Positions 8,502 to 51,922 of a stretch of DNA of 64,000 bases are shown piece after piece. Both the position numbers and the translations under genes were made by a program. Under the pieces are notes generated by a model that had not been told where the DNA came from, did no database searches, and saw nothing but the letters and a program-made list of their open reading frames with translations. The DNA is from an uncultured bacterium (lineage in GTDB: Bacteria > Hydrothermota > Tepidihabitantia > SM23-42 > CAYGYG01), in NCBI GenBank assembly GCA_964354155.1, contig CAYGYG010000001.1:139121-203120 (forward strand), written 5' to 3'. Positions within the stretch are counted from its first letter, which is position 1. Each line of letters opens with the position of its first letter.

Positions 8502-8673
8502 AAGGAAAACCTGCAGAGGATCAGATCATCAGGGCATCAGTAGGTAGAACACCAGCGTACCAGGATATCAGGAGCTAGCATCTCCGTGATCTATCCGCAC
8601 ATCACTGTAATCATCGATGCCTTGCACCGTCTCCACTGTAATCAGCGCCAACTCCAGTTGGCGAGGAGGTTTC

Positions 8674-9792
8674 ATGCTTGAAGTCATTTTGGCCCTGAGC
8701 ATCACCGCGCTATCCCCGCCGTCTGACGTCAGGGCCGTCGATACCCCCAACGACGGCGGAGGATCGATCGGTGTCCGCTGGCAGCTTTCCCCGGATGACG
8801 CGCTGGTCAGCGCTTATCGTATTGAAAGGGCTGAGGCCGGCAAGGATTTTGTGGATATCGGTTTTGTACCCCGGGCCACGGGTGTATTTGTCGATACCCG
8901 GGCGGCAGGCCGAGTCAAGTATTCCTATCGCATCGTTGCCCTCCAGGACACCATGCGGTCTGCTTCAGAACCGACCGGCGACGTATTCAGTTACGGACAG
9001 TGGTTTCATACCGAGCGGGTCAATGTCATCGTCGGGATCATCATTTTTTGTGCACTGATCCTCTGGTTTGTATATCATGCCCGCCGGGGCAAGGAGCTCT
9101 TCATAAGACGAATCGCCGGACTGGATGCGGTCGAGGAAGCCGTGGGTCGGGCCACCGAAATGGGCAAGGCAATTCTCTACGTGCCGGGCCTGGGATCGGT
9201 GGGTGATGTCGCGACGATTGCTTCGCTCAACATATTAGGCGAGGTGGCCCGCAAGACTGCCAAGTACGACACAACGCTGCTGGTGCCGAATCGCGACGCC
9301 ATCGTCTTTACGGTCGCCCAGGCCATGGTTAAGGAGGCCTATACCCGGGAAGGCCGGCCCGACGCGTACAAAGAGGAGAATGTCTTCTTCATCACCGACA
9401 GCCAATTTGCCTATGCCGCGGCCGTCGACGGTCTGATGGTGCGGGAGAAACCGGCAACCAATTTCTTCCTGGGCATGTTCTGGGCCGAATCATTGATCTT
9501 GGCCGAAACCGGGGCAACGACCGGGGCCATCCAGATTGCCGGTACGGACTCGGTCTACCAGCTGCCGTTTTTCATCACGGCGTGCGACTACACGCTGATC
9601 GGCGAAGAACTTTACGCCGCCTCGGCCTATCTTTCCCGCGAAGCCACCCTGCTCGGTTCGCTCAAAGCCCAGGACTACGGTAAGATAATCATCATCACCC
9701 TCATCATCCTTGGTTCGGCGCTCATGCTGGCCGGCACGATCGGTGGTCTCGGATTCCTCAGAGAGATCTACGGCTTCTTCTCGGTCAGCTAA
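8674..9792 (+). CDS. membrane protein with N-terminal FN3-like ectodomain, TM helix, about 230-aa cytoplasmic domain and C-terminal TM helix; function unknown
   Basis: GAGGAGG RBS before the ATG at 8674 ([14 protein letters not shown]). TM segments: [19 protein letters not shown] and [25 protein letters not shown]. It is the first of four translationally coupled genes. Confidence 0.6.
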
Positions 9793-9803
9793 GGAGGTTG
9801 ACA

Positions 9804-10424
9804 ATGCAACGACGCATTCCCATGACGATCTGTCTCGTAATGGGGATTTTCATGATCGTCCAGTACATGATTCCTCATCGAGTCTCGACCCAGGCCTACG
9901 AAGAGATGCTGAAGTGGGACCGGATCATCATCGCCTTCGCCTTGATTCTCTCGACCGGAAGTCTGGTGACGCACCACTGGTCGAAAATCAGGCGGAAGAA
10001 ACAAGGTTGGTACTTTAGCATTGTCACCCTGATCGGCCTGGCCATTACCGCATTCATTGGTGTGGGCTGGGGTATCCGGGCGGGCACGGCGCTTCACACC
10101 ATCTTCATAAATATGATTGTGCCTCTGGGTTCGTCGATGTTTGCCATCCTGGCGTTCTACATGGCTTCGGCGGCCTATAGGGCATTCCGGGCGCGTAACA
10201 AGGAAGCGACCCTGCTTTTGATCGCGGCGTTTATCGTGATGCTGGGCATGGTGCCGATCGGTTCGTTTCTTTGGGACAAGCTGCCCGATGTCGCACAGTG
10301 GATTCTCAATGTGCCTAACCTGGCGGCCAAGCGGGCGATTTTCTTCGGCGTGGCGCTGGGCGTAATCGCGACTTCAATCAAGATTATCTTCGGCATCGAA
10401 CGCGGCTGGATAGGAGGCAAGTGA
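9804..10424 (+). CDS. multipass integral membrane protein, unknown function
   Basis: AAGGAGG RBS. About 6 hydrophobic helices. Its start lies 12 nt after the upstream stop. Confidence 0.6.
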
Positions 10425-10425
10425 C

Positions 10426-11268
10426 ATGAAAGCATTCGAATGGCTTTTCAAGATTGACCGTCGGATCATCTTTCTGATCCTGGCCGCAGTCGTGATCCTG
10501 CCCTTGCTGGTCCCACTCAACCTGGGCGTGAAGATATCTCAGCCGGTCAAGGACTTGTTTGACGAGATCGACCGTCTTGAACCACGGAGCAAGCCGCTGA
10601 TGATTTCGGTCGATTTTGACCCTAACTCGATGCCCGAATTGTACCCGATGTATTTGGCGGTTCTGCGTCATGCCTTTGCCCGGAATATCAAAGTTGTGAT
10701 TCTGGGGCTCTGGTTGACCGGCATCAACATCGGCGAGGAAGGTTTGCGCGAGGTGTCGGCCGACTTCAAAAAGGTCAACGGACAGGATTACGTGTTCCTG
10801 GGTTGGAAGGCCGGGATCGCGGCCGTAATCCTGGGGATGGGCGAGAGCATAGAGCGGGTTTTCCCGGCCGACTATTACAACACGCCGCTCGATTCGCTTC
10901 CGCTGATGAGAGATGTCCGGAACTACTCGGACATCCCGTTTTTCGTCTCGCTGTCCGCGGGCGACCCCGGCTACCGGCAGTGGGTCACCTATGCCGGGTC
11001 CAGCTACAGCCTGCGTATCGGGGCGGGCGTCACGGCCGTTTCGGGCGCTGATGCCTATCCGTACCTTCAGACCGGTCAATTGGTCGGATTGCTGGCCGGC
11101 ATGAAGGGCGGCGCCGAATACGAGAATCTCCTCGGCAAGGCGGGTTACTACACGGGAGCTCAGATTGCGACCAAGGCGATGGATTCCCAGTCTCTGGCTC
11201 ACCTGGCTATCATGATCCTGGTGATCCTCGGCAATGTCGGGTTTCTGTTGGCAAGGAGGAAGAAATGA
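10426..11268 (+). CDS. bitopic membrane protein with large extracytoplasmic domain and C-terminal TM anchor, unknown function
   Basis: N-terminal TM helix (IIFLILAAVVILPLLV) and C-terminal TM helix (LAIMILVILGNVGFLL). Its start lies 2 nt after the upstream stop. Confidence 0.6.
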   Translation: MKAFEWLFKIDRRIIFLILAAVVILPLLVPLNLGVKISQPVKDLFDEIDRLEPRSKPLMISVDFDPNSMPELYPMYLAVLRHAFARNIKVVILGLWLTGINIGEEGLREVSADFKKVNGQDYVFLGWKAGIAAVILGMGESIERVFPADYYNTPLDSLPLMRDVRNYSDIPFFVSLSAGDPGYRQWVTYAGSSYSLRIGAGVTAVSGADAYPYLQTGQLVGLLAGMKGGAEYENLLGKAGYYTGAQIATKAMDSQSLAHLAIMILVILGNVGFLLARRKK

Positions 11269-11894
11269 CGGTATTCTGGACCTGGGTTGGTGCGCTGTTG
11301 ACACTCTGCATATTCTCCTTCCTGTACAAGGATAACCCGTTCTACAAGTTCGCCGAGCACCTTTTTGTCGGTATTTCGCTCGGCTACAGCATCGCCGTGA
11401 CGTGGCATAACGCGGTCTTCCCCGAGCTCTACGTGCCCTTGTTCCGGGACTTCCACCTTGCCAATCTGCGGCTGCTCATACCGTTCATACTGGGGCTCAT
11501 GTACCTTACGCGGTTTATCCCGAAGCTGTCGTGGATGTTCAAGCTGCCGATTGCGTTTCTGCTTGGCCTGTTCTCAGGCGCGGCGATCCCCCGCGAGTTC
11601 CAGGCCAATATCATAAAACAGATTCAAGGAAGTCTGCTGACGGCCGACTCATTCGCGAGATGGGATATTGCCCTTTTTGCGATAGTCGGGTTTGTCGGGG
11701 TTCTCTGTTCGCTTCTCTACTTCTTCTTCTCGCGCGAACGGAAGGGCATCCTGAAGCCGGCGTCGGAGATCGGCATTGTCTTCCTGATGGTTGGATTCGG
11801 CGCTTCGTTCGGCTATACGGTGATGGCGCGCGTCAGCCTGCTGATCGGCCGGGTACAGTTTCTGCTGGGTGACTGGCTGCATATCATCAAGTAG
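11265..11894 (+). CDS. multipass integral membrane protein, unknown function
   Basis: ATGA overlap with the upstream gene. About 6 TM helices. Confidence 0.6.
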   Translation: MTVFWTWVGALLTLCIFSFLYKDNPFYKFAEHLFVGISLGYSIAVTWHNAVFPELYVPLFRDFHLANLRLLIPFILGLMYLTRFIPKLSWMFKLPIAFLLGLFSGAAIPREFQANIIKQIQGSLLTADSFARWDIALFAIVGFVGVLCSLLYFFFSRERKGILKPASEIGIVFLMVGFGASFGYTVMARVSLLIGRVQFLLGDWLHIIK

Positions 11895-13728: not shown

Positions 13729-13855
13729 AATACCGCCGCGTCGTTTCCAATTTCAAGTCCCCGCCTGCCGAGTACACTGTGCAAGAAAAGACGGGTTGCC
13801 TGATGTGATCAGTTGAAACCAGCATTTTGATATTTGATTATTGATATGGATAAAA

Positions 13856-13929
13856 TGGGCCCGATCCGACTTGAACGGATGACCAGCTGATTATGAGTCA
13901 GCTGCTCTAACCAACTGAGCTACGGGCCC
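13856..13929 (-). tRNA. tRNA-Met (anticodon CAT; could alternatively be tRNA-Ile2 if C34 is lysidinylated)
   Basis: The reverse complement GGGCCCGTAGCTCAGTTGGTTAGAGCAGCTGACTCATAATCAGCTGGTCATCCGTTCAAGTCGGATCGGGCCCA folds as a cloverleaf (7-bp acceptor, D-loop AGTTGGTTA, anticodon loop CTCATAA, T-arm GTTCAAGTC). Confidence 0.85.
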
Positions 13930-14054
13930 AAAGATGCGCCAAAGGCCGCCGGAAACCGACGGTACTAAACAATCGAACAGCGTCAATATAATCGTAACGG
14001 CTGAGTTGTCAAGGGCGCGATTCGCCCTCGGGCCTTCATGGTCCGAGCTTCTTC

Positions 14055-14082
14055 TTGACATGAACTGCTTTCCGTATATGAT
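14055..14082 (+). promoter_or_regulatory. sigma70-like promoter (TTGACA-16-TATGAT) for the lipoprotein/DUF362/polyferredoxin operon
   Basis: ttgaca at 14055-14060 and tatgat at 14077-14082, immediately downstream of the divergent tRNA. Confidence 0.5.
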
Positions 14083-14089
14083 ACTGCCT

Positions 14090-14647
14090 ATGAAAAAGCT
14101 AATGCTAATTTCCATTATTTTCGCGCTTTGTTTCGTTGCCTGCCGCAAGGATGACGATGATGGGCCGCCGCCACCACCGCCGCCGGCTCAGAAGAACGCA
14201 ATCGACCTGCTCCCCAAGGATAACGAAATCAGCGGCTGGACCAAGAGCGAAGCGGTCAGGATTGCCGGCACTCCCGATGAATTGACCGCGATCATCGACG
14301 GCGAGGCCGTTCCCTACATCAACAACAACTTCAAAGATGCGGTTTTCCAGAAGTACCAGGGAGTCATTGGTTCAAACACTATAACTCTGGAGGTTCGCAT
14401 CTTCGACATGCGCGACACGGCCAATACCCGGAAGGTCTACCAAGATGTCGCCGCGGGTGGCGAACAACCCTGGAATAACCATCCCGGCGTTGAAGGCCGT
14501 ATCAATGACAGTTTCCTGTTCGACTACATGGTCGAATTCTGGGAAGCCAAGTTCTACACGCGCATTTTCATTCAAGAGAGGAGTGCGGCGGCGCTGGACA
14601 TTGCCAAGACTTTCGGCCTCAACATCTCGGCGGCAATCAAAGAGTAG
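14090..14647 (+). CDS. lipoprotein with poly-Pro linker, unknown function
   Basis: MKKLMLISIIFALCFVAC lipobox followed by RKDDDDGPPPPPPPAQ. The supplied ORF starts at 13934, but the signal peptide begins at 14090. Confidence 0.6.
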   Translation: MKKLMLISIIFALCFVACRKDDDDGPPPPPPPAQKNAIDLLPKDNEISGWTKSEAVRIAGTPDELTAIIDGEAVPYINNNFKDAVFQKYQGVIGSNTITLEVRIFDMRDTANTRKVYQDVAAGGEQPWNNHPGVEGRINDSFLFDYMVEFWEAKFYTRIFIQERSAAALDIAKTFGLNISAAIKE

Positions 14648-14653
14648 TCTCGT

Positions 14654-15577
14654 ATGAAGAATATCTCGCGCCGCGATTTTTTGAGACAGGCGATGGCGGC
14701 GGCCTTATCCGCCGCCCTTCTGCACAACGGCCGTGGTCTTTTTGCCCAGGAACCGGAGACGATGGACCTGGTGGTCGCAAAAGGAGACAAGGTTAAGGCG
14801 CTGAAAAAGGCCCTTGAGGCCTACGGCGGTATCGGCCGGTTCGTCAAGCCCCAAGATCGGGTCCTAATCAAACCCAACATCTCTTTTGCGAGCCCGCCGG
14901 AGTGGGGCGCAACCACGAGTCCGGAGCTGATCGTCGAGGTCGCTCGGGCTTGCCTTGAGGCCGGGGCCAAAAAAGTTATTATCGCTGACTACCCGCTGAG
15001 TGCTGCCGAGGTCTGTTATGCAAAGTGCGGACTCAAAAAGGCGATGGAGCAACTCCCACAAGTCGATGTTGTACTGTTGACCCAGGAGCGATTCTTTGTC
15101 GAGACCGAGGTGCCGCAAGGACTGGTCCTCAAGTCGACCAGGCTGGCCCGGGAGCTCTCCAAGAGCGATGTCCTGATCAGCATGCCCACGGCCAAGTCGC
15201 ATTCGGCTACCGGCGTGAGTCTGGGCTTGAAGGGCCTGATGGGTCTGATCTGGGACCGCGGTTACTTCCATCAGGATGTTGACCTAAATCAGGCGGTCGC
15301 GGACCTGGCCACAATTGTCAAACCAAACCTGGTGATCATGGATGCCTCGCGGCCACTGACATCGGGCGGCCCCGGTGGTCCGGGTGTGGTCAAGGAGCTG
15401 AACAAGGTGATTGTCGGTGTTGATCCGGTGGCGGTCGATTCCTATACGGTCGGTCTCGTCAAGTGGTATAACAAAGTGTTCGCCGGCAAGAACGTTAAGC
15501 ACATCGCCTTAGCCGCCAAGATGGGCTTGGGGGAGATTGATGTTACGAAACTGAAGATAAAGGAGCTCCTGGCCTAG
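14654..15577 (+). CDS. Tat-exported DUF362 domain protein
   Basis: Twin-arginine motif SRRDFLRQAMAAALSAALL. The body shows DUF362-type alpha/beta blocks (VLIKPNISFASPPEWGATTSPELIVEVARACLEAGAKKVIIAD). Confidence 0.7.
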   Translation: MKNISRRDFLRQAMAAALSAALLHNGRGLFAQEPETMDLVVAKGDKVKALKKALEAYGGIGRFVKPQDRVLIKPNISFASPPEWGATTSPELIVEVARACLEAGAKKVIIADYPLSAAEVCYAKCGLKKAMEQLPQVDVVLLTQERFFVETEVPQGLVLKSTRLARELSKSDVLISMPTAKSHSATGVSLGLKGLMGLIWDRGYFHQDVDLNQAVADLATIVKPNLVIMDASRPLTSGGPGGPGVVKELNKVIVGVDPVAVDSYTVGLVKWYNKVFAGKNVKHIALAAKMGLGEIDVTKLKIKELLA

Positions 15578-15612
15578 TATCCGGCCTTGCCGGGGCCTGC
15601 GCCGGAACCAGC

Positions 15613-17124
15613 ATGCCAAAGCGAACCCCATCTACGATGGCGAAGTGGCTCAAGGCAACGCGTATTGCCTCGCAGATCCTTTTCCTGGTTCTATTCGTCT
15701 ACCTTTTCAGGGCCTCGGCCAGCGTCGCCCGCCCGCTGTTCACCAATCCTTTCTTTCAGTCCGACCCATTGCTCTTTATCGCGACCTCGCTAGCCAACCG
15801 CAGTCTGCTTCCGTTCTTGCTGCCCTTGCTTTTCATGCTCGCGACGGCTGTCCTGGGCCGCGTTTTCTGCGGTTTTGTCTGCCCGCTCGGTTCGCTGATT
15901 GACGGTTTTGACGCTGTGGTCGGCCGGATAAAATACCGCAAGCTGGACTTCAGATTCCTCAAATACTATCTGCTTTTCTTTCTCCTTGTGCTGGCGCTGT
16001 TGGGCAGTACCTTGGTTTTCTTCTTTGACCCGATAGTCATCACCGGGCGCAGTTTTGTTGGTGTCATTCGGCCGGTTGTGTCCTTGCTGACCGGCAGTCC
16101 AGTCATGCACAACGGCATCATTTTCTTTGCTATCATGGCCGGAATTTTGATGTTTGGTTTCATTCAAAAGCGTTTCTGGTGTCGCAATCTATGCCCGCTG
16201 GGCGCACTGCTCGGGCTGGTCGGTCGTTTTTCCCTGCTGCGATACCGACTCGATGATGACTGCAAAGAATGCAGTCTCTGTGCCCGGCTCTGCCCGACCC
16301 AGGCGATTGACTCGGACGAGCGGGTGATAACCAGCAGCGAGTGTATCCGGTGCATGAATTGCCTGGGCGATTGTCCCGAAAAGAAGATCCACATTGGTTT
16401 CGGCGTAGGTCCGCTTCCCGGTCCGGGTCCGGATCTGAGCCGGCGTGGTTTCTTGGCCTCAGTCGGTTTAGGTATCATTGCCGCGCCCTTGCTCAAGACC
16501 GATTTTTTGACCAAGATCAACCTAGGCAAAGTGATTCGTCCGCCGGGAGCGATTCCCGAAAGCCTCTTTCTTAATGCCTGTGTACGCTGCGGCGAATGTG
16601 TGAAAGTTTGTCCGACCCGAGGCTTGCAGCCGGTCATGTTTCAAGGTGGCCTTGCTGGCCTGTTTGCGCCACGGTTGGAGGCACGGATCGGAGGGTGTGA
16701 GCGGAACTGCAACGGTTGCGGGCAGGTCTGCCCGACCGGGGCGATCCGCAAGCTGTCGCTTGACGAGAAGAGCTACGTGAAGATGGGCACGGCCGTGATT
16801 CATAAAGAGATGTGCCTGGCCTGGGAGCAAGACAAGGTGTGCCTGATCTGTGATGAGGCCTGTCCGTATAATGCGATCACTTCGCGGCTGGCCGAGGCAG
16901 CGGGCAGCCGTTTGTTAAGACCTTTCATAGACGAAGAGTTATGCACCGGCTGCGGCATCTGCGAGTCGCGGTGCCCGATCGCCGGTCCTTCGGCGATTGA
17001 AATCTTGCCGATCGGTGAAGAGCGGTTGAGTAAGGGTTCATACATGACGGCGCGAAAGAGGGAGCTTCGAGAACAGCTGGAGCGGGGCACCAATGAAGAT
17101 ATTCCTTCAGGGTTCATTGAATGA
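15613..17124 (+). CDS. membrane-bound polyferredoxin, NapH/MauN-like (two CxxCP membrane-domain motifs plus several 4Fe-4S CxxCxxCxxxCP clusters)
   Basis: CGFVCPLGSLID and CRNLCPLGALLG lie within the TM region. Downstream clusters: CKECSLCARLCP, CIRCMNCLGDCP, CVRCGECVKVCP, CNGCGQVCP, CLICDEACP, CTGCGICESRCP. Confidence 0.8.
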   Translation: MPKRTPSTMAKWLKATRIASQILFLVLFVYLFRASASVARPLFTNPFFQSDPLLFIATSLANRSLLPFLLPLLFMLATAVLGRVFCGFVCPLGSLIDGFDAVVGRIKYRKLDFRFLKYYLLFFLLVLALLGSTLVFFFDPIVITGRSFVGVIRPVVSLLTGSPVMHNGIIFFAIMAGILMFGFIQKRFWCRNLCPLGALLGLVGRFSLLRYRLDDDCKECSLCARLCPTQAIDSDERVITSSECIRCMNCLGDCPEKKIHIGFGVGPLPGPGPDLSRRGFLASVGLGIIAAPLLKTDFLTKINLGKVIRPPGAIPESLFLNACVRCGECVKVCPTRGLQPVMFQGGLAGLFAPRLEARIGGCERNCNGCGQVCPTGAIRKLSLDEKSYVKMGTAVIHKEMCLAWEQDKVCLICDEACPYNAITSRLAEAAGSRLLRPFIDEELCTGCGICESRCPIAGPSAIEILPIGEERLSKGSYMTARKRELREQLERGTNEDIPSGFIE

Positions 17125-17180
17125 GAAGAACCTCTAAGGCGGCCAATGGCTGAAGCGTACATCAAGACCAGGCAGGCCGG

Positions 17181-20100
17181 GTGACCCTCTTTCTTGTCTT
17201 GACGCTTCTTGCCGAGAGCGGCAAGGCCCTGGAAGGCCGGCCGATGGCTCTGTCAGCCGAGGGATACATCTTTATGACAACCCCGTCCGGCGTCTATCGC
17301 TTCGACAAGAACGCGCTGGAATGGTCGGTCCTTACCGTCAAAAACGGCCTGCCTCAAAACCTGGTTACGACCCTGGGGGTCGATGAAGGCTTGTTGTGGG
17401 TGGGCACCGATTCTGGTCTGGCCGTGGCCGACTTGAAACTGCTCAATTTCCGCGTCGTGGACACCTCGACCATTGGCGGCATCGGCTTTGATGCCGACTA
17501 TGTCTATGCCGGCGGTCCGGCCGGGATTCTGCGTTACGACAAGTATAAAGACCAACTGGAACTATTCGAGACCGGCGCCGCGGTTCGTGATCTAGTTCTG
17601 GTTGAAGACCGGATCTTCGCCGCGACTGATTCGGGTCTCGTCGTCTTCAACACGCGATACGAGAAGACGGAGGCCACTCCCTACGAAATAAGCGAGCCGC
17701 TCAAACATATCGTTACCACGAACTTCAGTCTGTTTTTTCTTGGTAACCAGAACTGCTATCAGTATCACAAGACGACCCGGGGCTGGCGCCGATTTGATGG
17801 GTTCAAGGCGAACGACTATGCGGTGCGCGGCGATTCGGTTTGGGTGGCGACGGACGACGAGGTGATGATATATGATGATGTCCTTGGTGGCTGGTCGCGG
17901 TATCGACAGGAAGAGTGGCTACCGGCACCGAGAATCACGGCACTCTCGGTAACCGCCGGCTATCTAGTTTTCGGCAGTGAACAAGGGATTATCGTGGTCG
18001 ACAACAAGAACCGAACTTGGAAGAAGTATAACCTGGCCAACGGTCTGGTTGAAGAAAGCGTGCTGAGAATCGTTGAAGAAGGGGGCGAGATTTACCTGCT
18101 TTCTCCGGGTTGGCTGCAAAGGTTTGACCGCAAAGGAGACTGGAAGCGTCTGAAGATCGAAGGTCTCCAGGTTGCCAAAGAAGGGCTTTTCACGGTCGAT
18201 GAGGCGGGCGGCCATATCAACCTGTCGAACGATGTCAAGGCGACCCTGCAGGGTCGCATCTCCGGTCAGTATGAGATGCAGGACACGATGGTTCTGAAGA
18301 GCGAGACCATCGACAGCCGGTTCATGCTTGGTCGAACCGGCGGACGGTTGCTGGCGGCTTACTACGACGATACGGAAAAACAGAGAAAACTCTATGGCGC
18401 GGTTTACCAGGATCCCAAAGGAATCGTTGCGCGGGCCAGCGCCGGCAAGCTCCGGTCCGAATTCTACAAATCGGGCCTGATCCCGCCCGGTTCCTATCTG
18501 GGCGGCAGCGGACGTCTGGAGACAAAGGTTGCGGCGCTGACCATGGCCGGGGGCGCAAAGCGTTCGGCCTTCACCGCCGACTATTTTACTGGAAACAGCA
18601 CCAACCGATTGCTGTCCATCGAGGACATCGCCTACCTCAAGAACGTATTTTTCGCGGTCGACACGATCGACCCACAGATCGATTTCGAGAGCGAATCGTT
18701 GTTCGTCGACAACCGGGTTGCTCTCGACAACGACGAGAACACGCGGCTTGGCCAGCGGATTGCCGGATTGGTCGGCGATTTCGACCCACGACACCGCGGC
18801 ATTGACTACGCGGTCGACTATGCCCGGGGAATGATTCGGTTTCTAACCCCACTTGCCGATTCGGCGGTTGTAGTCATCAAGTTCAGTGGCGGACAGGAAG
18901 CAGTGCTGCAGGGGCGGGGCCAGGACAGTCTGGAATTGAAGAATCATTACCAGCTCGGGGCCATCGAGATACTGCCCCGCAGTCTTTCAATCCGTATCTT
19001 CGACACAACCAATGTCGAATACCCCCTGGACCGATTTGGACTCGACAATAACCGTGACGGTGCGGTCGACGACGAGTACGTCAACTACTTCAACGGCATA
19101 CTACGTTTCCCCGCGCGGCGGCCTTTCCCGGATACCGTGTACCAGTCAACCCCGGCCAGCTGTTACCGGATGATGATTTCCTACCGGTCAAAGATGTCGA
19201 CTTACCAGCTGTCACAGGCACCGGTGGTTACTAACAGCGAGGAGGTGATTCTGGATGGGGTGAGTGTACGCCGCGGCATCGACTACATCATCGACTACAG
19301 TACCGGCAATGTCGTTTTTCTGGAGAAAGGTCGCGTGTTGACTAAGAGTGAGATCGAAGTTCGCTACGAGTATGAGTATCCGGAAGGTGGGACCAGTTCG
19401 GATACCGCGGTTCTGGGCGGACAGCTGGCCGTGGCGCCCGGCGGCGGATTTGAGTTTGTTCCCGGCTTCTATCGTTCGGGCGAACAGCAGGTGGCCAATG
19501 TTGTTTCGGAGTGGGAGCTAAAGCGGCCTGCGCTTGGCCTGAGGCTTGTGCCCGAGATCGGTATCAATGCGGACGATTCCCGGGCAAAGGGGGGCCGAGT
19601 TTCCGCGTTCGGCAGCTTGAGGCGCTTGCGGCTCAATTCCATCGTCGAGACGTACGAACCTGCCTTCAAGGCATTTGGGCGACGCACGAGTCGGTACGGC
19701 GAACTGACCTCGCGGTATTACCTGTACAGCAAGTACGAATTCTCGGATTTCGTTGCCGTCGATGGTTCTTATGATCGGCGCCAGGCTGAAGATACGGTCG
19801 CCGGCTCTCAGTTCGACCGCGAGACCGGCGTCGGTGGAGTGTACTTCAATCTCCCCAGCCTGCCGGTTCTGACCCTGGGCGGCGGGCAGCGCACGTACTC
19901 CGGTGACCTGCCCCAACCCCAGGAGAAACGCTACTCTGGGCACGCCAGTATTGACTATAGCGTACCCCCCGGCGTTGCACGGCGGGCACGCTTGAGCAAT
20001 CTGAAACTGGGCGGGTCGTTCTCGGCCGAGATGATCACCGAACCTGGCGAGATGGATCTTTGGGAGGAGAACCGGATTCTCAGTGCCTCGTCCACGCTTC

Positions 20101-21095
20101 CGCTGTCGAATGATATCGGGGTTTACTACCGCGGCGTGGATGAGCGGGAGGTCGGCACAAGCCTGCCCCTGGAGAAGGGGGACAACTTTCGGTTGACCTC
20201 ACGCCACGATTTCATTCCTGGTATCTACGTTGCCAATAGCTATGAGCTGGACGATGGATTGGCGCTGGCCCAGGAGGACCGACTGCTCAGCCTGGATCAT
20301 TCGCTCCTCTCCATGGCCAAGATAGGACCCGGCGCCTGGTTTCCCGACCTCAGCTTCATCAATTTCGAGGTAAGCTACGGTCGCAGCATGACCGCATCGG
20401 TCAGCGGGCCGGGTCTTAGCCGGGTCTTTTTCAGTCTTATGATCCCGGAGCAAGGCGATATCCTGTACCAAGGTCTTTCCAACAGCTATACGTTTACGGC
20501 CGATCTTCGGCCGGCATCCAGCCTTATCATCAGTCCGGCATATTCTCTGGCCCGGGGCGAGACCGGCTACTGGGACGGCTTGACCAGATTTGTTGAGCAC
20601 AACCTTAGTCCTAAGCTGGAGACATACCTCGGACCCAACACGACCTTAACCGGCCAGTACTTTCTCAAGGATGAAGAGCGCGCCGGCATATCCTCGAGGG
20701 TATCGAATAACCCGGTGGCCGAGTGGCAGAATCGCTGGTCACGAACTATCAGAACCAAAACCAGGCTGTCGGTTCGGCGTGAAGTGTACAACGAGGGCAA
20801 CATCGAACAGACGGATGACGACGTGTCGCCGTCAGTACAATTCGGCTACTACGACGACCGGTTCTTCAAGGAATTCGAATTTCTGACCACGCTCGGGTTG
20901 AGTTACGGGCGGACCATGAATGGAGTCACGTCGGAAGAGATGCGCGTTGTGCCGGTGTTCGAATTGAACATGCGGCCGACGACTTTCTTTGTGGTGAATA
21001 CTTCCTTCCAACCCACCTACACCTATGACCTGGGTGATCCTGACTTGAGTGAGTTTGATCCTTACCTTAAGCTGAAGGGAACACTCCAGTTCTGA
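17181..21095 (+). CDS. very large (about 1300 aa) protein with N-terminal two-component-regulator-propeller-like (Reg_prop) beta-propeller repeats and a C-terminal beta-rich region ending in Phe (outer-membrane-like)
   Basis: Repeats of type GLPQNLVTTLGVDEGLLWVGTDSGLAVADL / IFAATDSGLVVFN / VWVATDDEVMIYD. The C-terminus KLKGTLQF. The start codon is uncertain (GTG 17181 or ATG 17244). Confidence 0.5.
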   Translation: MTLFLVLTLLAESGKALEGRPMALSAEGYIFMTTPSGVYRFDKNALEWSVLTVKNGLPQNLVTTLGVDEGLLWVGTDSGLAVADLKLLNFRVVDTSTIGGIGFDADYVYAGGPAGILRYDKYKDQLELFETGAAVRDLVLVEDRIFAATDSGLVVFNTRYEKTEATPYEISEPLKHIVTTNFSLFFLGNQNCYQYHKTTRGWRRFDGFKANDYAVRGDSVWVATDDEVMIYDDVLGGWSRYRQEEWLPAPRITALSVTAGYLVFGSEQGIIVVDNKNRTWKKYNLANGLVEESVLRIVEEGGEIYLLSPGWLQRFDRKGDWKRLKIEGLQVAKEGLFTVDEAGGHINLSNDVKATLQGRISGQYEMQDTMVLKSETIDSRFMLGRTGGRLLAAYYDDTEKQRKLYGAVYQDPKGIVARASAGKLRSEFYKSGLIPPGSYLGGSGRLETKVAALTMAGGAKRSAFTADYFTGNSTNRLLSIEDIAYLKNVFFAVDTIDPQIDFESESLFVDNRVALDNDENTRLGQRIAGLVGDFDPRHRGIDYAVDYARGMIRFLTPLADSAVVVIKFSGGQEAVLQGRGQDSLELKNHYQLGAIEILPRSLSIRIFDTTNVEYPLDRFGLDNNRDGAVDDEYVNYFNGILRFPARRPFPDTVYQSTPASCYRMMISYRSKMSTYQLSQAPVVTNSEEVILDGVSVRRGIDYIIDYSTGNVVFLEKGRVLTKSEIEVRYEYEYPEGGTSSDTAVLGGQLAVAPGGGFEFVPGFYRSGEQQVANVVSEWELKRPALGLRLVPEIGINADDSRAKGGRVSAFGSLRRLRLNSIVETYEPAFKAFGRRTSRYGELTSRYYLYSKYEFSDFVAVDGSYDRRQAEDTVAGSQFDRETGVGGVYFNLPSLPVLTLGGGQRTYSGDLPQPQEKRYSGHASIDYSVPPGVARRARLSNLKLGGSFSAEMITEPGEMDLWEENRILSASSTLPLSNDIGVYYRGVDEREVGTSLPLEKGDNFRLTSRHDFIPGIYVANSYELDDGLALAQEDRLLSLDHSLLSMAKIGPGAWFPDLSFINFEVSYGRSMTASVSGPGLSRVFFSLMIPEQGDILYQGLSNSYTFTADLRPASSLIISPAYSLARGETGYWDGLTRFVEHNLSPKLETYLGPNTTLTGQYFLKDEERAGISSRVSNNPVAEWQNRWSRTIRTKTRLSVRREVYNEGNIEQTDDDVSPSVQFGYYDDRFFKEFEFLTTLGLSYGRTMNGVTSEEMRVVPVFELNMRPTTFFVVNTSFQPTYTYDLGDPDLSEFDPYLKLKGTLQF

Positions 21096-21115: not shown

Positions 21116-22033
21116 CTAGTTCTTGGCGATGTAGCCCAGGAAGAAACCGCTGGTTTGATTATCCTGGGGCAAGACACGCCCGCATTGGGTGACTCGTTCA
21201 TCGAGCCGATGCCCTTTCCATTCGGTCACGCCGGGGCGTATCTTCAAACCATTAACTTGAACCGGCATCACCTCGGCCTGGGGATGACGTCTCAGCAGGT
21301 AGTTGACCACGATTTCGTTCTCCTCGGGTGCGTAGGTACAGGTTGAGTAGACAAGCGTACCTCCCGGCTTCAAGGCGCGGAATCCGGCCAGCAGCAGCCC
21401 GATCTGGATGGTAGCCATGCGTTCGATGTTTTTTTCCCCCCAGTGATAGAGAACCGCACGCGACTTGTTGATTGTTGCTTCGGCCGAACAGGGCGCGTCG
21501 ATCAGCACTCGGTCAAAGTAATCGGGCAGCAGGTGACCGAAGCGGTTGCCGTTGAAATTCGTGATCACGGTATTGAGTACGCCCATCCTGTCCAAGTTGA
21601 AAGCCAGGGCCTTGATGCGATCCGGACGAACATCGTTGGCGACGATGAGACCGCTGTTCTCCATGACCTGGGCCAACTGAGTCGTCTTGGACCCGGGGGC
21701 CGCGCAGAGGTCAAGGACTTCGTCGCCGGGCTGGGGCGCGAGCAGCAGTGGTGGCAGCATTGAAGCAGCTTCCTGGATGTAGATGTGACCGAGAAAGTGG
21801 GCAAGATGATTACCAAGGGGCAGGCGGTCGTCATTGAGTACGTAGCCATCGGTGCAGAAGGGAAGCGGAGAGATCGGAAGATTACAGAGTAGGTCGAGTA
21901 TCTTGGCTCGCGCTGATTTCAGCGGGCTCAAGCGGAAGGTCGTCCGGAGCGGCCGGCTCAAAGCCTGGAGGAATTCGTCATAGTCAGGGATGATCGACTG
22001 GTACCGGCCGGCAATGTCTTCAATCGATTTCAT
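21116..22033 (-). CDS. RsmB/RsmF (NOP2/Sun) family RNA m5C methyltransferase
   Basis: AdoMet motifs LDLCAAPGSKTTQLA and DAPCSAEATI, plus the catalytic TC of YSTCTYAPEENE. The start is at MKSIEDI, with GGAGGG 7 nt upstream. Confidence 0.75.
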   Translation of the reverse strand: MKSIEDIAGRYQSIIPDYDEFLQALSRPLRTTFRLSPLKSARAKILDLLCNLPISPLPFCTDGYVLNDDRLPLGNHLAHFLGHIYIQEAASMLPPLLLAPQPGDEVLDLCAAPGSKTTQLAQVMENSGLIVANDVRPDRIKALAFNLDRMGVLNTVITNFNGNRFGHLLPDYFDRVLIDAPCSAEATINKSRAVLYHWGEKNIERMATIQIGLLLAGFRALKPGGTLVYSTCTYAPEENEIVVNYLLRRHPQAEVMPVQVNGLKIRPGVTEWKGHRLDERVTQCGRVLPQDNQTSGFFLGYIAKN

Positions 22034-22515
22034 TGGAGGGCCCTCCATCGATTACAATGATGAACAGATAGATTACTGTGATGGAGGAGCTGATCCCTCG
22101 TTTTACTCGGGACGATGCGTGGCATCGGATTACGGAGATAGAACGATTCAGACAGATTCACCCCGTTAGAATAATTGTATCGGAACGATTGCTCTGGCTC
22201 GTATGATGCGTCGACTATTACTGACGACACAACTACAAATCGGTAGAACCCAGGTATTTCTAACGGGGTAAAGCGGATGCACACTGATGCTCTGCAAGTA
22301 GCGAGTGGCAAGGAGCAAGTAGAGAGTTGGGAGATCACGTTTAGAACGTTGCAAACGTTAGTAACGTTAATGACGTTCAGATTACCCCGTATCTCCATGG
22401 CTCTTAGCCGGTACTCATTGCTCATTGCAGTATCCCCTCCGCGCCTCTGCTCCTCCGCACCCCTGCGGTTTTTGTCGTAGTCCATTACTCCATCATTCCA
22501 TGCTTCCATCATTCG

Positions 22516-24600: not shown

Positions 24601-25989
24601 TCAGTTTGCCACGACCATGGTTTTGGAAACCGAGCGACGTCCCGCCTTGATTGTATAGACGTACACACCAGCCGCGGTCTTGCGGCCCACGCGGTCGCGA
24701 CCATTCCACATCACCTCGAAGATACCCGGGTTGTGCATCTTGTCCGCCAGCGTCCTGACCGCGCGACCCGCCTTATCGGTGATCTTGACGGTGACTCTTG
24801 TTGGTTCTTTCACGGCATACCGTATGATGGTCGTCCCGCTGAACGGGTTGGGCTGATTCTGGTACAGCACAATACCGTCAACGCGTTCCGCACGCTCTTC
24901 TTCAACTCCGGATGGATTCTGAATCCTGATCAGGTTGATGTCCATGGTGCCGAGATTATAAGGGGCCTGCGCCGCGGTCCTGATGTGTGCCGCGTCTTTG
25001 GCGGGCAAACCGCGCCGGGCACGTTCCGCATCGATTATTTGCTCGCCCTGGTAGTCGATGGCAACCGGGTCTCGTGACATAAGAAGACTATCCGGCGTAT
25101 TCTTGGGTGCGAAAGTCAACCATGACTGGGGACTGCCGCCCGGTCCGCCGTTATAGATACCGAAGAGACCGTCGACGATGAAGATCTTTTCCTGTTTATT
25201 CAGGACATCCCTTATCTGCTGGTTGAGCGACGGGATTTCCGGGCTGTTATTGCCGTCGCCGGCGCCGCACGGGACCGGGTTGCACGAGCCGTAGTGGTTT
25301 TTCAGGCAGAAAGTCATGGCTGGTGCCCCGTGGTCTTTGAGGCAGGCGACGTTGATCATGTAGTTCGAGAGCGCCGACATGATCCGGCTCGGCTGGACGC
25401 TGATCGTGCCGCTGTCCCGCTGGATGGTCAAGGGTCGGGTTGCGTCATACCCGATACCGGTCTGGTTTGTGCCGAATACCCGGTGCTGGGTGGGCGTGCC
25501 GCCGGTGTAGATTGTGTAGCCGGCTCCGGTCAGTTCACCATTGGTCCGGTCCCATATGATAGCGTTGTTCCGGATGAAGTTCTGGCCGCCGATGTTCATC
25601 TGAGCCAGCCCATTGATCACGGTCTCGACCAGGAGCCGATGCGACGAGAGCGCACTATTTATGCAGTTGACTTTGATGCAGATCACGCTGGCGGTAGTAA
25701 TACCCGGAAAGAGGGAGCGCCAGGCGTCACCGAGGTTGGATATACCGGTCAGGCGGCGCATCGATGTATCCATCATTATCTGCACGATGGACTGGTTGAT
25801 CGTCGTTCCGGTAGTGGCCGCAACATCATTGCACCAGATGACATCGCTGGCCGGCAGAAGCTTACCCGGCTTCTGCTTACTATCGGCAAAAAGCCCGGGC
25901 ACAACTGCCGCACCCGCGGCGCCGGCCGCAAGCTTCTTCAAGAAATCACGACGAGAAATCGGCTTGCTCATAAACCTCCTTATGTTCAA
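24601..25989 (-). CDS. DUF362 domain protein with Tat signal and C-terminal T9SS sorting domain
   Basis: Twin-arginine motif MSKPISRRDFLKKLAAGAAGAAVVPGLFA (alternative start at 25971). DUF362-like core. C-terminal IVLYQNQPNPFSGTTIIRYAV...GVYVYTIKAGRRSVSKTMVVAN is a type-A T9SS tail. Confidence 0.7.
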   Translation of the reverse strand: MNIRRFMSKPISRRDFLKKLAAGAAGAAVVPGLFADSKQKPGKLLPASDVIWCNDVAATTGTTINQSIVQIMMDTSMRRLTGISNLGDAWRSLFPGITTASVICIKVNCINSALSSHRLLVETVINGLAQMNIGGQNFIRNNAIIWDRTNGELTGAGYTIYTGGTPTQHRVFGTNQTGIGYDATRPLTIQRDSGTISVQPSRIMSALSNYMINVACLKDHGAPAMTFCLKNHYGSCNPVPCGAGDGNNSPEIPSLNQQIRDVLNKQEKIFIVDGLFGIYNGGPGGSPQSWLTFAPKNTPDSLLMSRDPVAIDYQGEQIIDAERARRGLPAKDAAHIRTAAQAPYNLGTMDINLIRIQNPSGVEEERAERVDGIVLYQNQPNPFSGTTIIRYAVKEPTRVTVKITDKAGRAVRTLADKMHNPGIFEVMWNGRDRVGRKTAAGVYVYTIKAGRRSVSKTMVVAN

Positions 25990-26016: not shown

Positions 26017-29000
26017 CTACTTCAAATAGATGATCTTCGCGACTGACGAGCCGCTCGGTTTCTCTATTTTGACAAAATAGACGCCATTGGGTAAATCCAA
26101 AGGTTGCCACCGGACGCGTCCTTTGCCCTGGGTTTCCGCGCTGAATAGATTATCGACCAGCCGGCCCGAGGCGTCAAAGATGTCGATGGTCAGCCTTTCG
26201 CGAGTCGGCAGGCTGTAGGTTATGTTGACCGCCTTATAGAACGGACTCGGTGTGATGTTGACGGTGGGCACGTTAGTTATCCGGACGTAAGTCTCCTCTT
26301 CGATGCCGATATTCCGATCCCACCAGGATTGGGCACTATCCGAATTGATCAGCGCCAGGGTCGTATCATTGCCGCCGACCACGGCGTAGGCAACGCGGAC
26401 CTTGCCGCCGACCGGCAGGTTAAACGGCCCGGCCGACGCGCAGATCGACCAATTGAACGCGCGGTCGCTGAAGCGCATTCTGATCAACCCGGAAAGGAAG
26501 CTGTCTTTCGCCGCTTCGGTCATCATCGTGGCGGGCAGCACGTAACGCGCGTGGTCAATCGCCGACAGATTCCGTGCGGCTCGGGGTTGGAGCACCCGAA
26601 TGCCGCAGACCGGGTACATCGTGGTTGACCGCCTCATGTAGATGAACCTTCGTACGCTGTCCGACCTCACGATATTGCTGGTCACGTTATTGTAGACGTC
26701 GAAGTCAAACATCATGCCGGAGGAGAGGTTATTGATCGGATTCGTGCCGCGGTTGTAGTAGTCGAAGCAGACGATGACCCAGTCGTCATAACCCGGCTGG
26801 GACAGCGACAGACTCCACTGCTTGACTTCCAGGCCTTTGGGCGAAGCATGGTTGGCATCGTTGTACACCGCTTCATACTCTTCTTGCGCGGCCCGGGGCG
26901 GCAACACAGGCCGGAGCGAATCAACCACGCGGAAATCCTGGTTGATGGTGGTGTAGGGACGGCCGTAGAACCGGTCGACGACGTAATTGGCGTCAGTTCC
27001 GGCGAGCATGCTGGCGTACTGCAGGTTGCCATAAGATGATAGCTTCGAATACTTGAAACCAGAACCCTCACCATAAGGATAGGTTACGCCGAAACTGCCA
27101 TTGGTCGTTACCGTGAAGGCCGGGAGACAGGTGTCATGGTCAGCCCAGGCGAGTCGGGCGTCAGGCGGTACTCCGACGGTGAGTCTCAGGAAAGGTTCCC
27201 AGCCGCCCTCAGAAGCGGTCGCATTGACGAGGAACTCAATCCCGGTTCCCTGTGGGGTGGACGGAGACACGGTGAACCGATAGGTGTCACCGCGGCTCGT
27301 ATCGCCGGCCGCGACATTGCCGTAAACGGAAGTCGAGTCGACGAAGCTGATGAAGCCGGAGCTGTTGCGCAGGCGGCCCTGGAGGTTCGTCGCGCCCGCG
27401 TTACCAGCATTCTTAAGCGTCATGTAGAAGTTGACAGTTTCGCCCGGATCAAGACGCCCGTTGTTGTTGCCGCCGGAATCGTCGATGCGGTGTGACTGGT
27501 AGACGATACAGGGTCTCGGTGATCCCGAGCTCACGGTGCAGGTTCCCTCGTAGGGAATCAGGTCCTTGTACGTAACCGTGATGCTCAAGGCTCCGGTTGT
27601 AGTCGGGCTGACAAAAAGATCTATCCAGCCCTGACTGTTGGTCCGTCCAACCGCGTATACCTCAGTACCCTTCAGAGCACAGACTAGGGCATTGACGACC
27701 GGCGTGCCGGAAAGAGTTGTTGTCACCCGGAGCATCTGAGGCGATGCGGGTATCGTGGCAACGTGGGTGACCGTTGGACGCCGTGGCGCGACACTGTACA
27801 TGGGCAAATTGGGATCGCCAAACAGCGTGTTTTCGTAGACGCACCATCGGGTGGCCGCCTGGGACATTGCCATGTTCCGGCAATTGTCCTTTGCCATATC
27901 GTGGGCGATGCCGACTTCAAAGGCCGATTTAAGCCAGAAGCATTTGTAGAATTCAAGATCGAGGATCTCCGAAGGTCCCAGCCCCGGTGGATAGCCAAGT
28001 CCGTAGCGGGAGTTGAGCATGTTCGCGACGCAGCCGCCGGTCGGACAGTTGACGAGACTCTCCGCGATGCAATCCTTGGCATCGAAACTGCCGACGTCAC
28101 AGTTGATGGCATTCATGATGTCCAATCGTATCCCGTTGGTCAGCGTGGGTATATGGCTCATGCTGAGCACGCTCAGCGACGTGTAGCTGCCGTGCGCCGC
28201 GATGTGGCAGAACTGATACCCGCGGTTTATCGAGTCCCGGGTCGCAGTCGAGGCCGGGTCTTTCAGTTTGGCTTTTTTCCAGGTCGGCGGAAAGTAACTA
28301 GCGATTATGTTGTTCGGAAATTCGCCGTGATAAGGCGAGAACAGCATCTGAGAGGGGAGGAGCAGTGACTTCACGTACGCCGTATCCGGATATTTCTCGA
28401 AGGTCGTATCTTTCCTGATGAATGTCGGCAGGTTTGTCGCGTTGTCGATCGGGGCGCGCCCGATGTAGACGTCGTGGAGTAGATCCACGGTGTCACCCAT
28501 CTCACCGAAAAGGCTGTTCCGGTTGCCGTCCCACGACCATTGCAGGTCGGCGTAGTACATGTCGGTAGGGATACTCCCGGTTATCGTGCTTTCTTCGATC
28601 ACCAGCCTTGTCTTGCGGTCCGGCACAATCATGTCATCACCACCGAGCAGAACGTACTTTAGTCCCTTGGTGCGCCAGTAGTCGGCGATGAAGTTTCTGA
28701 TCTTCTCCTGGTTGTCGCGGCCAGCATAGCGCGCATAGATCGAATCAGTCCCCATAACAACGGTGTTGATGCCTTTTTTGACCTTCCAGTTCTTGAAGGC
28801 GTCCCAGCTCGGAACGAGGGTCCGGCTCGTAATGATGACGTAATCGATCTCCCCGGCATCCAATTCCTTGACCTGAGGCGCCCAGGATGCTACGGCCTCA
28901 GGATTGGCTACCAATCCCTTGACCTCGCGGCCGAACAGCTCCTGCTGACTGGTCGTGAGGGCGACCGGTTCATGCCGGCCGGTCTCGTAGTGAACGTTTA

Positions 29001-30971: not shown

Positions 30972-31931
30972 ATGAAGAAAATCAGGAAAGTCCATATCGC
31001 CAGTCTACCGACGCCAATTGAGGTGATGCGCGACTTCCCGCATCCGGCCACGATTTTCGTGAAGCGGGATGACCTTACCGGGCTGCTGACCAGCGGCAAC
31101 AAGGTGCGCAAGCTCGAATACTCGCTGGCCGACGCCCTAAGCTACAAAGCCGACACGGTCATTACGTGCGGGGGCATCCAATCGAATCACTGCCGGGCGA
31201 CGGTCGCCTGTTGCCGCATACTGGGATTGAACCCGGTTATCGTTCTGCGGGGCGAACCGGTGCAACCCTATGACGGCAACCTCCTGCTCAATCAGCTGCT
31301 GGGGTGTGAAATCAGGTACATCACGCGGCGGGAGTACGATCATGTTGACGATTTGATGGAATCAATGGCCGCGGAGCTCATGCGGCAGGGCAAGCATCCT
31401 TACATAATTCCCGAAGGTGCTTCGAACGAAGTCGGTCTTCTCGGCTACATCGAGTGCATGGCTGAGATGAAAGAGTTCATCAAGCGGGAGCGGATCGAGG
31501 CGGTGTATGTCGCCGTAGGATCAGGCGGCACTTATGCGGGCCTGCTGTTGGGCAGAGTCATCCACAAGGTTGATGTTGATGTGTTCGGTGTCATCATCTG
31601 TGATACCGTCGAATTTTTCACCGAGAAGGTGTGCCGCATCGCTCAAGTCGCAGTTGACCGGTACGGCCTGGGCGCGGGAATTGATAAAGACGATGTCACG
31701 CTGGTTGACGGCTACATCGGCAAGGGTTACGGGATTCCTTATCGCGCCGAGATTGAGACGATCAAGAAGGTCGCGAAATTCGGCATCATTCTTGACGTGG
31801 TTTACACGGGCAAGGCTTTCCACGGTATGCTGAATCACGCCAAGGCCTACAAGAAGGTTCTATTCATTCATACCGGGGGCATATTCAGCCTGTTCCCGTA
31901 CCGGGAGGAATTCTATGGCCATCGGTCCTAA
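30972..31931 (+). CDS. PLP-dependent D-cysteine desulfhydrase / ACC deaminase family protein
   Basis: LPTPIEVMRDF...VKRDDLTGLLTSGNKVRKLEYSLADAL...TCGGIQSNHCRATVAAC...AVGSGGTYAGL are fold-type II PLP blocks typical of the DcyD/ACCD family. Confidence 0.75.
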   Translation: MKKIRKVHIASLPTPIEVMRDFPHPATIFVKRDDLTGLLTSGNKVRKLEYSLADALSYKADTVITCGGIQSNHCRATVACCRILGLNPVIVLRGEPVQPYDGNLLLNQLLGCEIRYITRREYDHVDDLMESMAAELMRQGKHPYIIPEGASNEVGLLGYIECMAEMKEFIKRERIEAVYVAVGSGGTYAGLLLGRVIHKVDVDVFGVIICDTVEFFTEKVCRIAQVAVDRYGLGAGIDKDDVTLVDGYIGKGYGIPYRAEIETIKKVAKFGIILDVVYTGKAFHGMLNHAKAYKKVLFIHTGGIFSLFPYREEFYGHRS

Positions 31932-31947
31932 CACAAGTCGTTTCGGC

Positions 31948-51921: not shown

Positions 51922-51922
51922 A

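Follow-up and report, generated by a model that had tools for sequence, protein, structure and literature searches.

The DNA studied here is a 64-kb stretch (64,000 nucleotides, the whole of which we call the window) of contig CAYGYG010000001.1 from an uncultured bacterium, and our subject is a cassette of four open reading frames (ORFs) that occupies 14090-21095 on its forward strand. In order, the four genes encode a small lipoprotein, a DUF362 protein with a signal for the twin-arginine translocation (Tat) pathway, a membrane polyferredoxin, and a 1304-residue protein in which a predicted β-propeller precedes a predicted outer-membrane β-barrel (Table 1). All lie on one strand with intergenic gaps of 6, 35 and 56 bp, so that the four co-directional, closely spaced genes described in an earlier note on this DNA are present as claimed. 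A fifth member, a longer DUF362 paralogue that was absent from that note's description of the system, is displaced within the window and lies on the other strand, and the gene next to the cassette, which encodes an RsmB/F-type methyltransferase (21116-22048, -), is convergent on it.

Table 1. The cassette, its displaced fifth member and associated features, in window coordinates (T9SS, type 9 secretion system; TMD, transmembrane domain).
Feature	Position	Strand	Basis or remark
tRNA-Met (CAT) gene	13855-13930	-	immediately upstream of cassette
Sigma-70-like promoter match	14055-14082	+	TTGACA-16-TATGAT, 11/12 consensus matches
Small lipoprotein, 185 aa, DUF6599-like	14090-14647	+	ATG start, homologue length, N-terminal Cys
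Predicted Tat-exported periplasmic DUF362 protein, 307 aa	14654-15577	+	signal MKNISRRDFLRQ...; PF04015
Membrane polyferredoxin, 503 aa, NapH-NapG fusion (PFD family)	15613-17124	+	NCBIfam NapH and NapG matches
Internal twin-arginine motif SRRGFL, polyferredoxin residues 276-281	16438-16455	+	precedes weakly hydrophobic TMD5
N-terminal part of 1304-aa protein: hydrophobic leader and predicted β-propeller, ~330 aa	17181-18167	+	family profiles
Predicted SprA/Sov-type giant outer-membrane β-barrel, C-terminal 975 aa, ends GTLQF	18168-21095	+	AlphaFold2, Foldseek, profiles
Long DUF362 paralogue, displaced fifth member	24601-25971	-	Tat signal, DUF362 and T9SS type A sorting domain

Gene order and its conservation

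Scanning one genome per species with an alignment of the polyferredoxin gave 54 loci, and the window proteins were compared with all of the ORFs at each. Thirty-seven of these loci are WOR-3-like (WOR-3, Stahlbacteria, TA06, and some metagenome-assembled genomes (MAGs) that are unclassified or carry the label 'Cloacimonadota'), and the other 17 come from other phyla (Desulfohalobiaceae and other Desulfobacterota, Eisenbacteria, Hebobacteria, Armatimonadota, and a MAG labelled Bacillota). The order lipoprotein, Tat-DUF362, polyferredoxin and ~1300-residue protein recurs in ~35 WOR-3-type genomes with differing flanks, which bears out the earlier proposal that the genes form one conserved system. 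Among the WOR-3-like loci a DUF362 gene stands directly upstream of the polyferredoxin gene in all 29 that could be tested and the gene for the large protein directly downstream of it in 32 of 35; a long DUF362 gene (~440 aa) immediately precedes the lipoprotein gene in 21 of the 22 testable cases. The corresponding counts for the other phyla are 12 of 14 for DUF362 upstream of the polyferredoxin (13 if locus L053 is counted, where the DUF362 ORF overlaps the polyferredoxin ORF), 0 of 13 for a barrel downstream and 0 of 12 for a long DUF362 upstream. The cassette is kept in relatives at 64%, 29% and ~25% identity, and the full five-gene order is still present where the large protein has fallen to ~25% identity. 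Complete WOR-3 chromosomes are among its carriers (CP070802.1, CP070795.1, CP070705.1, CP070680.1 and CP070686.1).

Divergent members of the propeller-barrel family also occur in related cassettes without the polyferredoxin. One form has a long DUF362 ahead of the DUF6599 lipoprotein, short DUF362 and barrel, and a second has DUF6599 lipoprotein, DUF362 and barrel; in a third arrangement, seen at one locus, the barrel is followed by DUF362. Because such cassettes keep DUF362 and the barrel when the polyferredoxin is missing, we regard DUF362 as the hub of the system, and for the same reason the barrel is tied to DUF362 and not to the electron carrier. Two conserved associations therefore meet at DUF362: over several phyla it goes with the polyferredoxin, and in WOR-3 and its relatives with both the lipoprotein and the SprA-type barrel.

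At its 5' end the cassette required correction. The earlier note began the operon at 13934, which is a mechanical ORF start that abuts the tRNA-Met gene; since that gene occupies the positions just before it, the first ORF cannot start there, and the real start of the lipoprotein is the ATG at 14090 (MKKLMLISIIFALCFVAC...), which yields a protein of the same length as its homologues. The single promoter that the note placed ahead of the genes can be found as a site, but it is a match to the consensus only, and the sigma-70 consensus may not be that of the host phylum. If the site is functional, the cassette transcript would be leaderless or nearly so, because the ATG lies just 8 nt downstream of the -10 hexamer, which ends at 14082. 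No credible terminator was found inside the cassette, where 7 terminator-like sites were seen against ~10 expected by chance.

The lipoprotein has a putative signal peptide running to Cys18, a DDDD-poly-Pro linker, and a conserved D[LV]LPxDNEISGW motif. Its score against the Pfam model DUF6599 (PF20244) is borderline (25.8 bits, cutoff 27), and its homologues match that model more clearly (E<=1e-5). A hydrophobic N-terminal stretch ends in a cysteine in 17 of 17 homologues (at ~14-28), and the lipobox pattern is fitted by 5 of the 17, the residues before the cysteine often being non-canonical. The gene is part of the cassette at nearly all WOR-3-like loci.

The polyferredoxin and the DUF362 proteins

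The polyferredoxin matches the NCBIfam NapH models over residues 10-261 (E 4e-27), as the earlier note had recognized, and it has in addition a NapG-like half (residues 293-480, E 7e-30) that is predicted to be periplasmic. Both matches fall under the subfamily cutoffs, with 94-95 bits against 213-234 for NapH (TIGR02163: 94.2 against 213) and 89-104 bits against 179-269 for NapG (TIGR00397: 89.0 against 178.9), and these scores place the protein as a homologue of, but outside, the Nap and Mau subfamilies. The family to which it belongs is very large, with >5,000 matches at E<=1e-20; the public gene call for the window protein begins 8 codons downstream of the start in Table 1.

The chain contains 28 cysteines, which include two CxxxCP motifs (C86 and C190), where the earlier note gave CxxCP, and six four-cysteine groups. 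That note described all six groups as CxxCxxCxxxCP; the number stands, but the canonical spacing holds for only four of them (217, 244, 323 and 444), the others being CxxxCxxCxxxCP (362) and Cx8CxxCxxxCP (401-417). Groups 217 and 244 belong to the NapH part, and groups 323, 362, 401-417 and 444 to the NapG part. The NapH half is predicted to consist of four Sec-type helices, with the CxxxCP pair and two [4Fe-4S] motifs facing the cytoplasm. It is followed by the internal twin-arginine motif, whose arginines are conserved (R277 in 14/16 sequences, R278 in 16/16), by a fifth helix of low Kyte-Doolittle hydrophobicity (1.71, against 2.2-2.8 in TMD1-4), and by conserved Lys or Arg residues at 295, 301, 306 and 309. 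The twin-arginine motif and TMD5 together should give the other four [4Fe-4S] motifs a periplasmic location.

This layout is that of the PFD family, to which the protein belongs as a NapH-NapG fusion with predicted joint Sec/Tat insertion. According to Tooke et al. 2017 (PMC5449189), helices 1-4 of the PFD homologue Q1NSB0, a protein of delta proteobacterium MLMS-1, insert without Tat, while fusions expressed in E. coli showed that the fifth helix and the iron-sulfur domain require it, and the authors read the PFD as a fused form of the NapGH quinol dehydrogenase. Like Q1NSB0, the window polyferredoxin joins a NapH-like four-helix half and a NapG-like four-cluster half in one chain and has its twin-arginine motif right before a weakly hydrophobic TMD5 that is followed by positive charges; the two differ in that TMD5 covers residues 279-295 of the ~500-residue window protein and residues 338-359 of Q1NSB0, for which 7 clusters are predicted in the same source. 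The NapGH quinol dehydrogenase of E. coli and Wolinella succinogenes has the same two modules with the same predicted sidedness (PMC5449189), but as separate proteins rather than one fused chain. The partner of the window polyferredoxin is DUF362 in place of NapAB or NapC, and nitrate reductase genes are absent from the neighborhood of the cassette. A term search of the PFD paper's text, as available, returned no mention of neighboring genes (PMC5449189), and the pairing with DUF362 adds to what is known of the PFD family.

The short DUF362 protein passes the gathering cutoff of PF04015 by a wide margin (160.2 bits, E 9e-47, cutoff 24) and begins with an SRRDFL twin-arginine signal. The RR-x-F core of that signal is kept in at least 90% of 26-38 homologues from several phyla, in agreement with the earlier description of a periplasmic, Tat-exported protein. 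Ten positions form an invariant core (K73, P74, N75, D112, K181, H183, K193, H206, D230 and D262); C100 is invariant in the alignment of 26 sequences and present in 37 of 38 in the larger set, and C121 is nearly invariant. Judged from the alignment, the invariant residues look like an enzyme or cofactor site and not like an iron-sulfur cluster motif. The spacing of H183, K193 and H206 may resemble that of the catalytic His, cofactor Lys and Ni-binding His of the lactate racemase LarA, to which no match was found at the level of sequence. A permissive scan of 26 DUF362 proteins with the Lar_N Pfam model found no match. DUF362 shares Pfam clan CL0471 with DUF2088, the N-terminal domain of LarA (PMC11770544), but DUF362 is Tat-exported and paired with an iron-sulfur carrier and LarA is neither.

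We also compared the short DUF362 proteins of three polyferredoxin-free cassettes (L064 2587-3492, L066 3543-4595 and L065 1214-2149), and in two of the three both cysteines, 100 and 121, are missing. In so small a sample as three cassettes this hints that Cys100 and Cys121 are connected with electron input.

The long DUF362 paralogue carries the same SRRDFL motif in a Tat signal that exceeds its model cutoff (TIGR01409, 26.4 against 16.7), a DUF362 domain (34 bits against 24 in Pfam) and, at residues 380-460, a type A sorting domain of the T9SS (TIGR04183 Por_Secre_tail, 25.0 bits against 23), with which the C-terminal part of the NCBIfam T9SS_PorZ model aligns; Pfam detects FlgD_ig in the protein as well. 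It keeps the polar core of the short form (K/N/D/KxH/K/D/D/D) and lacks its two cysteines.

The propeller-barrel protein and the type 9 secretion genes

The earlier note took the terminal Phe of the large protein as the sign of an outer-membrane component, and both AlphaFold2 and Foldseek, applied to the C-terminal part, give a giant barrel of the SprA type. The AlphaFold2 model of the C-terminal 975 residues is almost all β-structure, with a predicted local distance difference test score (pLDDT) of 92.5 and a predicted template modeling score (pTM) of 0.81 from an alignment of 58 sequences, against a pLDDT of 31 with 4 sequences. About 40 long strands are assigned to it by DSSP; the barrel of the known SprA has 36 strands, an extracellular cap and a lateral opening. 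In the Foldseek search of the PDB the first four ranks are all SprA chains (8gl6_A, 8gl8_A, 6h3i_A and 6h3j_A; E 3e-19 to 7e-13), with TM-scores of 0.50-0.54 when normalized by query length; the fifth-ranked match has E 2e-7, and ordinary barrels follow at ~1e-5. A C-terminal aromatic residue is kept in almost all homologues (...K[IV]TGQF).

Profiles lead to the same family. An exhaustive search of 1.84 billion representatives returned 806 matches, among which are ~60 family members of 1,130-1,490 residues and a second tier of 1,550-2,000 residues. Two second-tier proteins, P0289 (210 bits) and P0345 (309 bits), pass the SprA/Sov model TIGR04189 at its cutoff of 200, and the gene of the former adjoins a PorV gene. 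The 58-sequence family profile is collinear with these SprA-like proteins, over its first half at E 1e-50 to 1e-70 and over its second half, to the C-terminus, at E 1e-5 to 1e-24, with an extra 450-500 residues in mid-chain of the SprA-like proteins. By sequence profiles and modeled fold the barrel is homologous to the T9SS translocon SprA, and not to the sheath of a porin-cytochrome complex. It is nevertheless not a member of the SprA family, because the large protein falls under the TIGR04189 cutoff (45.2 bits, all in one stretch at residues 660-731), is missing about half of the mass, and has a different N-terminus. With SprA/Sov (PDB 6H3I, 6H3J, 8GL6 and 8GL8) it has in common the closest fold by a wide margin, the C-terminal aromatic residue, and a genetic association with type A sorting-domain cargo; it differs in size, its 975 barrel residues comparing with ~2,000-2,400 for SprA chains of solved structure and ~1,550-2,000 for the nearest SprA-like proteins, and in the place of its gene, which unlike that of SprA lies in an operon with redox genes. 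In the extended translocon of Flavobacterium, SkpA and SprE are bound by the N-terminus of SprA, which is periplasmic (PMC10994853), and in the large protein the propeller stands in the place of that binding region.

The motif RG[IV]DYxxDYxxGxxxF occurs twice in the large protein (residues 539-556 and 698-716, window ~18795-19328) and marks two copies of a small β-domain that has weak matches to phage distal-tail and tail-tube proteins and also to SprA positions 581-653. Residues 662-734 match DUF2460 and phage tail models, but a phage origin was rejected, as these matches reflect the small β-domain, which SprA has as well. We likewise set aside the impression that the large protein is nearly unique, which came from 8 matches in a word-index search and is an artefact, since the genome scan and the exhaustive search both found the family. 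Sequence searches of the PDB with the large protein and with the lipoprotein returned nothing useful.

For the N-terminal part, the Reg_prop-type propeller of the earlier note has support from the family but is not detected in the protein itself, the window sequence alone giving no Pfam propeller match (PF07494 or PF21544) at E<=0.01. The large-protein family profile retrieves Reg_prop proteins at E values down to 7e-19, with repeated matches to multi-propeller proteins, and 8 of 19 family members match the Pfam model PorZ_N_b_propeller (PF21544, best E 4e-7), against 1 of 19 for Reg_prop; at the family level, then, the propeller is probably of the PorZ_N or two-component-regulator type. PorZ, a surface-exposed component of the T9SS attachment complex, has two propellers and its own sorting domain. 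It is a separate protein (the T9SS_PorZ model has 757 positions), whereas here a single propeller that fits the PorZ_N model in those 8 family members is fused in front of a barrel.

The window also holds other genes related to type 9 secretion. A C25-family peptidase of 1160 residues (26017-29499, -) adjoins the long DUF362 gene and carries, besides a propeptide, a type A sorting domain of the T9SS; its match to the PorU sortase model is weak (52 bits, cutoff 420). Porphyromonas gingivalis PorU is of about the same length, and the peptidase may be the T9SS sortase of the lineage. Candidate T9SS cargo is unusually dense, with the proteins at 31915-34560 (+), 37342-38997 (+) and 40958-42637 (+) passing the type A sorting-domain model and those at 35235-36974 (+) and 59834-62017 (-) ending in FlgD-Ig-like tails. 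Within the 64 kb neither further T9SS machinery (PorV, SprE/PorW, SkpA or GldKLMN) nor a second SprA-like gene was recognized.

Elsewhere in the window, a DUF6754 protein followed by three ORFs without a family match (8617-11894, +) lies upstream of the cassette; this group is syntenic only in the two closest relatives (L001 and L006) and is outside the conserved cassette. Tandem paralogues with DUF4140 and DUF4139 domains are found at 1264-2916 (+) and 3220-4782 (+), and a 505-residue ORF at 47381-48898 (-) has partial similarity to BamA (89 bits, cutoff 297). The genes selB and selA, at 50002-52011 (-) and 51923-53323 (-), are both well over their cutoffs, and since both are present the source organism makes selenoproteins.

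Candidate functions and their implications

The architectures, predicted sidedness, homologies and gene linkage of the cassette established above are best explained by a conserved envelope module of the candidate division WOR-3 that is centred on exported DUF362 proteins. As to what such a module does, we favor a composite in which a quinone-linked periplasmic DUF362 redox enzyme is coupled to a SprA-type outer-membrane portal, a reading to which we give a probability of roughly one half (0.5). By analogy with NapGH, the polyferredoxin would exchange electrons with both the quinone pool and the periplasmic DUF362 protein, and DUF362 would be the catalytic redox subunit, to which we assign no substrate or chemistry. 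The SprA-type barrel would be the outer-membrane portal of the DUF362 system and would most likely pass, or anchor at the cell surface, the folded and cofactor-loaded DUF362 protein that bears the sorting domain, conducting no electrons itself. Like the SprA N-terminus, the propeller would lie on the periplasmic side, where it could form a docking platform for periplasmic partners.

Several points weigh against this composite. Gene adjacency is the one ground for proposing that the polyferredoxin passes electrons to DUF362; searches of PDB sequences with DUF362, by single sequence and by profile, detected no solved structure, and we found in the literature no functional study of the family, for which no cofactor or substrate is known. 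The large protein has a very short hydrophobic leader that lacks a charged n-region, though it is plausible as a signal peptide. At three WOR-3-like loci the polyferredoxin gene has no barrel gene directly downstream, and in Coatesbacteria a distant member of the barrel family stands alone with no link to DUF362. Finally, of 25 second-tier proteins looked up, the 12 that are named include no full-size SprA from WOR-3, the names being 'bacterium', 'hypothetical protein', Caldisericota, Firestonebacteria, Elusimicrobiota, Aerophobetes or Desantisbacteria; because none of them comes from WOR-3, the barrel may be the general type 9 translocon of this lineage and not a dedicated one.

That last possibility is the main rival, in which the 1304-residue protein serves all sorting-domain cargo of WOR-3 and the place of its gene beside those for DUF362 and the polyferredoxin reflects either inherited synteny or one abundant cargo and not a dedicated joint function. 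The many type A sorting-domain proteins in a window with no other SprA-like gene, the lack of a named full-size match from WOR-3 and the solitary Coatesbacteria homologue would all fit such a general role. The adjacency of barrel and DUF362 genes, however, persists at 20-29% identity with flanks and order changed, which is unusual for mere synteny, the region with which SprA binds SkpA and SprE is replaced by a propeller (PMC10994853), and the TIGR04189 score is 45 bits against a cutoff of 200. On these grounds we consider a general translocon unlikely, while granting it real weight.

The earlier note proposed a redox conduit spanning the periplasm. In the form of an MtrCAB-like system, electrons would run from the polyferredoxin to the periplasmic DUF362, through the barrel lumen as an insulating sheath to a surface DUF362 and on to an extracellular acceptor. 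A very large barrel of ~40 long strands is indeed predicted, as are four clusters in the periplasmic domain of the polyferredoxin and a DUF362 paralogue on either side of the outer membrane (the first having a Tat signal alone, the second a T9SS sorting domain in addition), and MtrB is among the weak structural matches to the barrel (E 2e-5). What is shared with MtrCAB is nonetheless just the concept of an electron source in the inner membrane, a carrier in the periplasm and a barrel in the outer membrane; MtrCAB employs multiheme cytochromes, and no CxxCH heme motif occurs in any of the four cassette proteins. The barrel has no iron-sulfur motif either; the large protein contains two cysteines, neither of them conserved, and neither Cys nor His is invariant anywhere in the family alignment. 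No redox cofactor is established for DUF362, and the long form that would act at the surface is without the two cysteines of the short form. The match to the SprA fold is better than that to MtrB by at least 12 orders of magnitude, and the barrel is retained where the polyferredoxin is absent. The claim of a cytochrome-like conduit is thus not upheld, and we regard any version of it as improbable.

Still more doubtful is a gate for import, in which the barrel would admit a bulky or polymeric substrate, the propeller would bind it, and the periplasmic DUF362 would transform it with electrons from the polyferredoxin. Two-component-regulator propellers are described as ligand-binding sensor domains in the names of retrieved proteins, fusions of DUF362 with CBM9 and dockerin modules are reported from communities that degrade lignocellulose (PMC5742341), and TonB-dependent and SusC-type transporters are among the weak fold matches. 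Against these stand the facts that import is not known for any protein of the SprA family, that the propeller would by analogy with SprA be periplasmic and not surface-exposed, and that the sorting-domain DUF362 in the cassette points to export. That the four genes are unrelated neighbors sharing a strand is scarcely credible when the cassette is found in ~35 genomes with different flanks.

In the literature we found no description of the combination of polyferredoxin, DUF362 and SprA-like barrel, and none, either, of what DUF362 does, of DUF6599 or of a compact SprA; literature on WOR-3 with NapH or the T9SS likewise gave no account of the cassette, consistent with the earlier statement that this is not a described respiratory complex. 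Known kinds of protein, namely the PFD family, DUF362 and the SprA-type fold, are here combined in an undescribed way.

DUF362, a large family of no known function, gains a constant NapGH-type polyferredoxin partner across several phyla and a defined invariant site. A compact, propeller-fused SprA in an operon would show a minimal form of the barrel and would show that the fold can be specialized, SprA having so far been known, to our knowledge, only as the single general T9SS translocon. That a single protein has both a signal for Tat and a sorting domain for the T9SS implies that a protein folded in the cytoplasm and bearing a cofactor is handed to the type 9 pathway, and we know of no case in which such a handover has been documented. 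The most far-reaching proposal, to which we attach little credence at present, is that a T9SS-derived barrel was recruited into a non-cytochrome surface redox system, with cofactor-loaded DUF362 proteins that would fold in the cytoplasm, leave it by Tat and be set in and outside the outer membrane by a compact SprA dedicated to them and fitted with a docking propeller, their electrical or functional link to the quinone pool being kept through the Sec/Tat polyferredoxin. Were this true, it would be the first function for DUF362, the first specialized paralogue of SprA, and the first Tat-then-T9SS route for a cofactor-bearing protein. For WOR-3, of which we know no cultured representative, the cassette is one of the few handles on envelope physiology.

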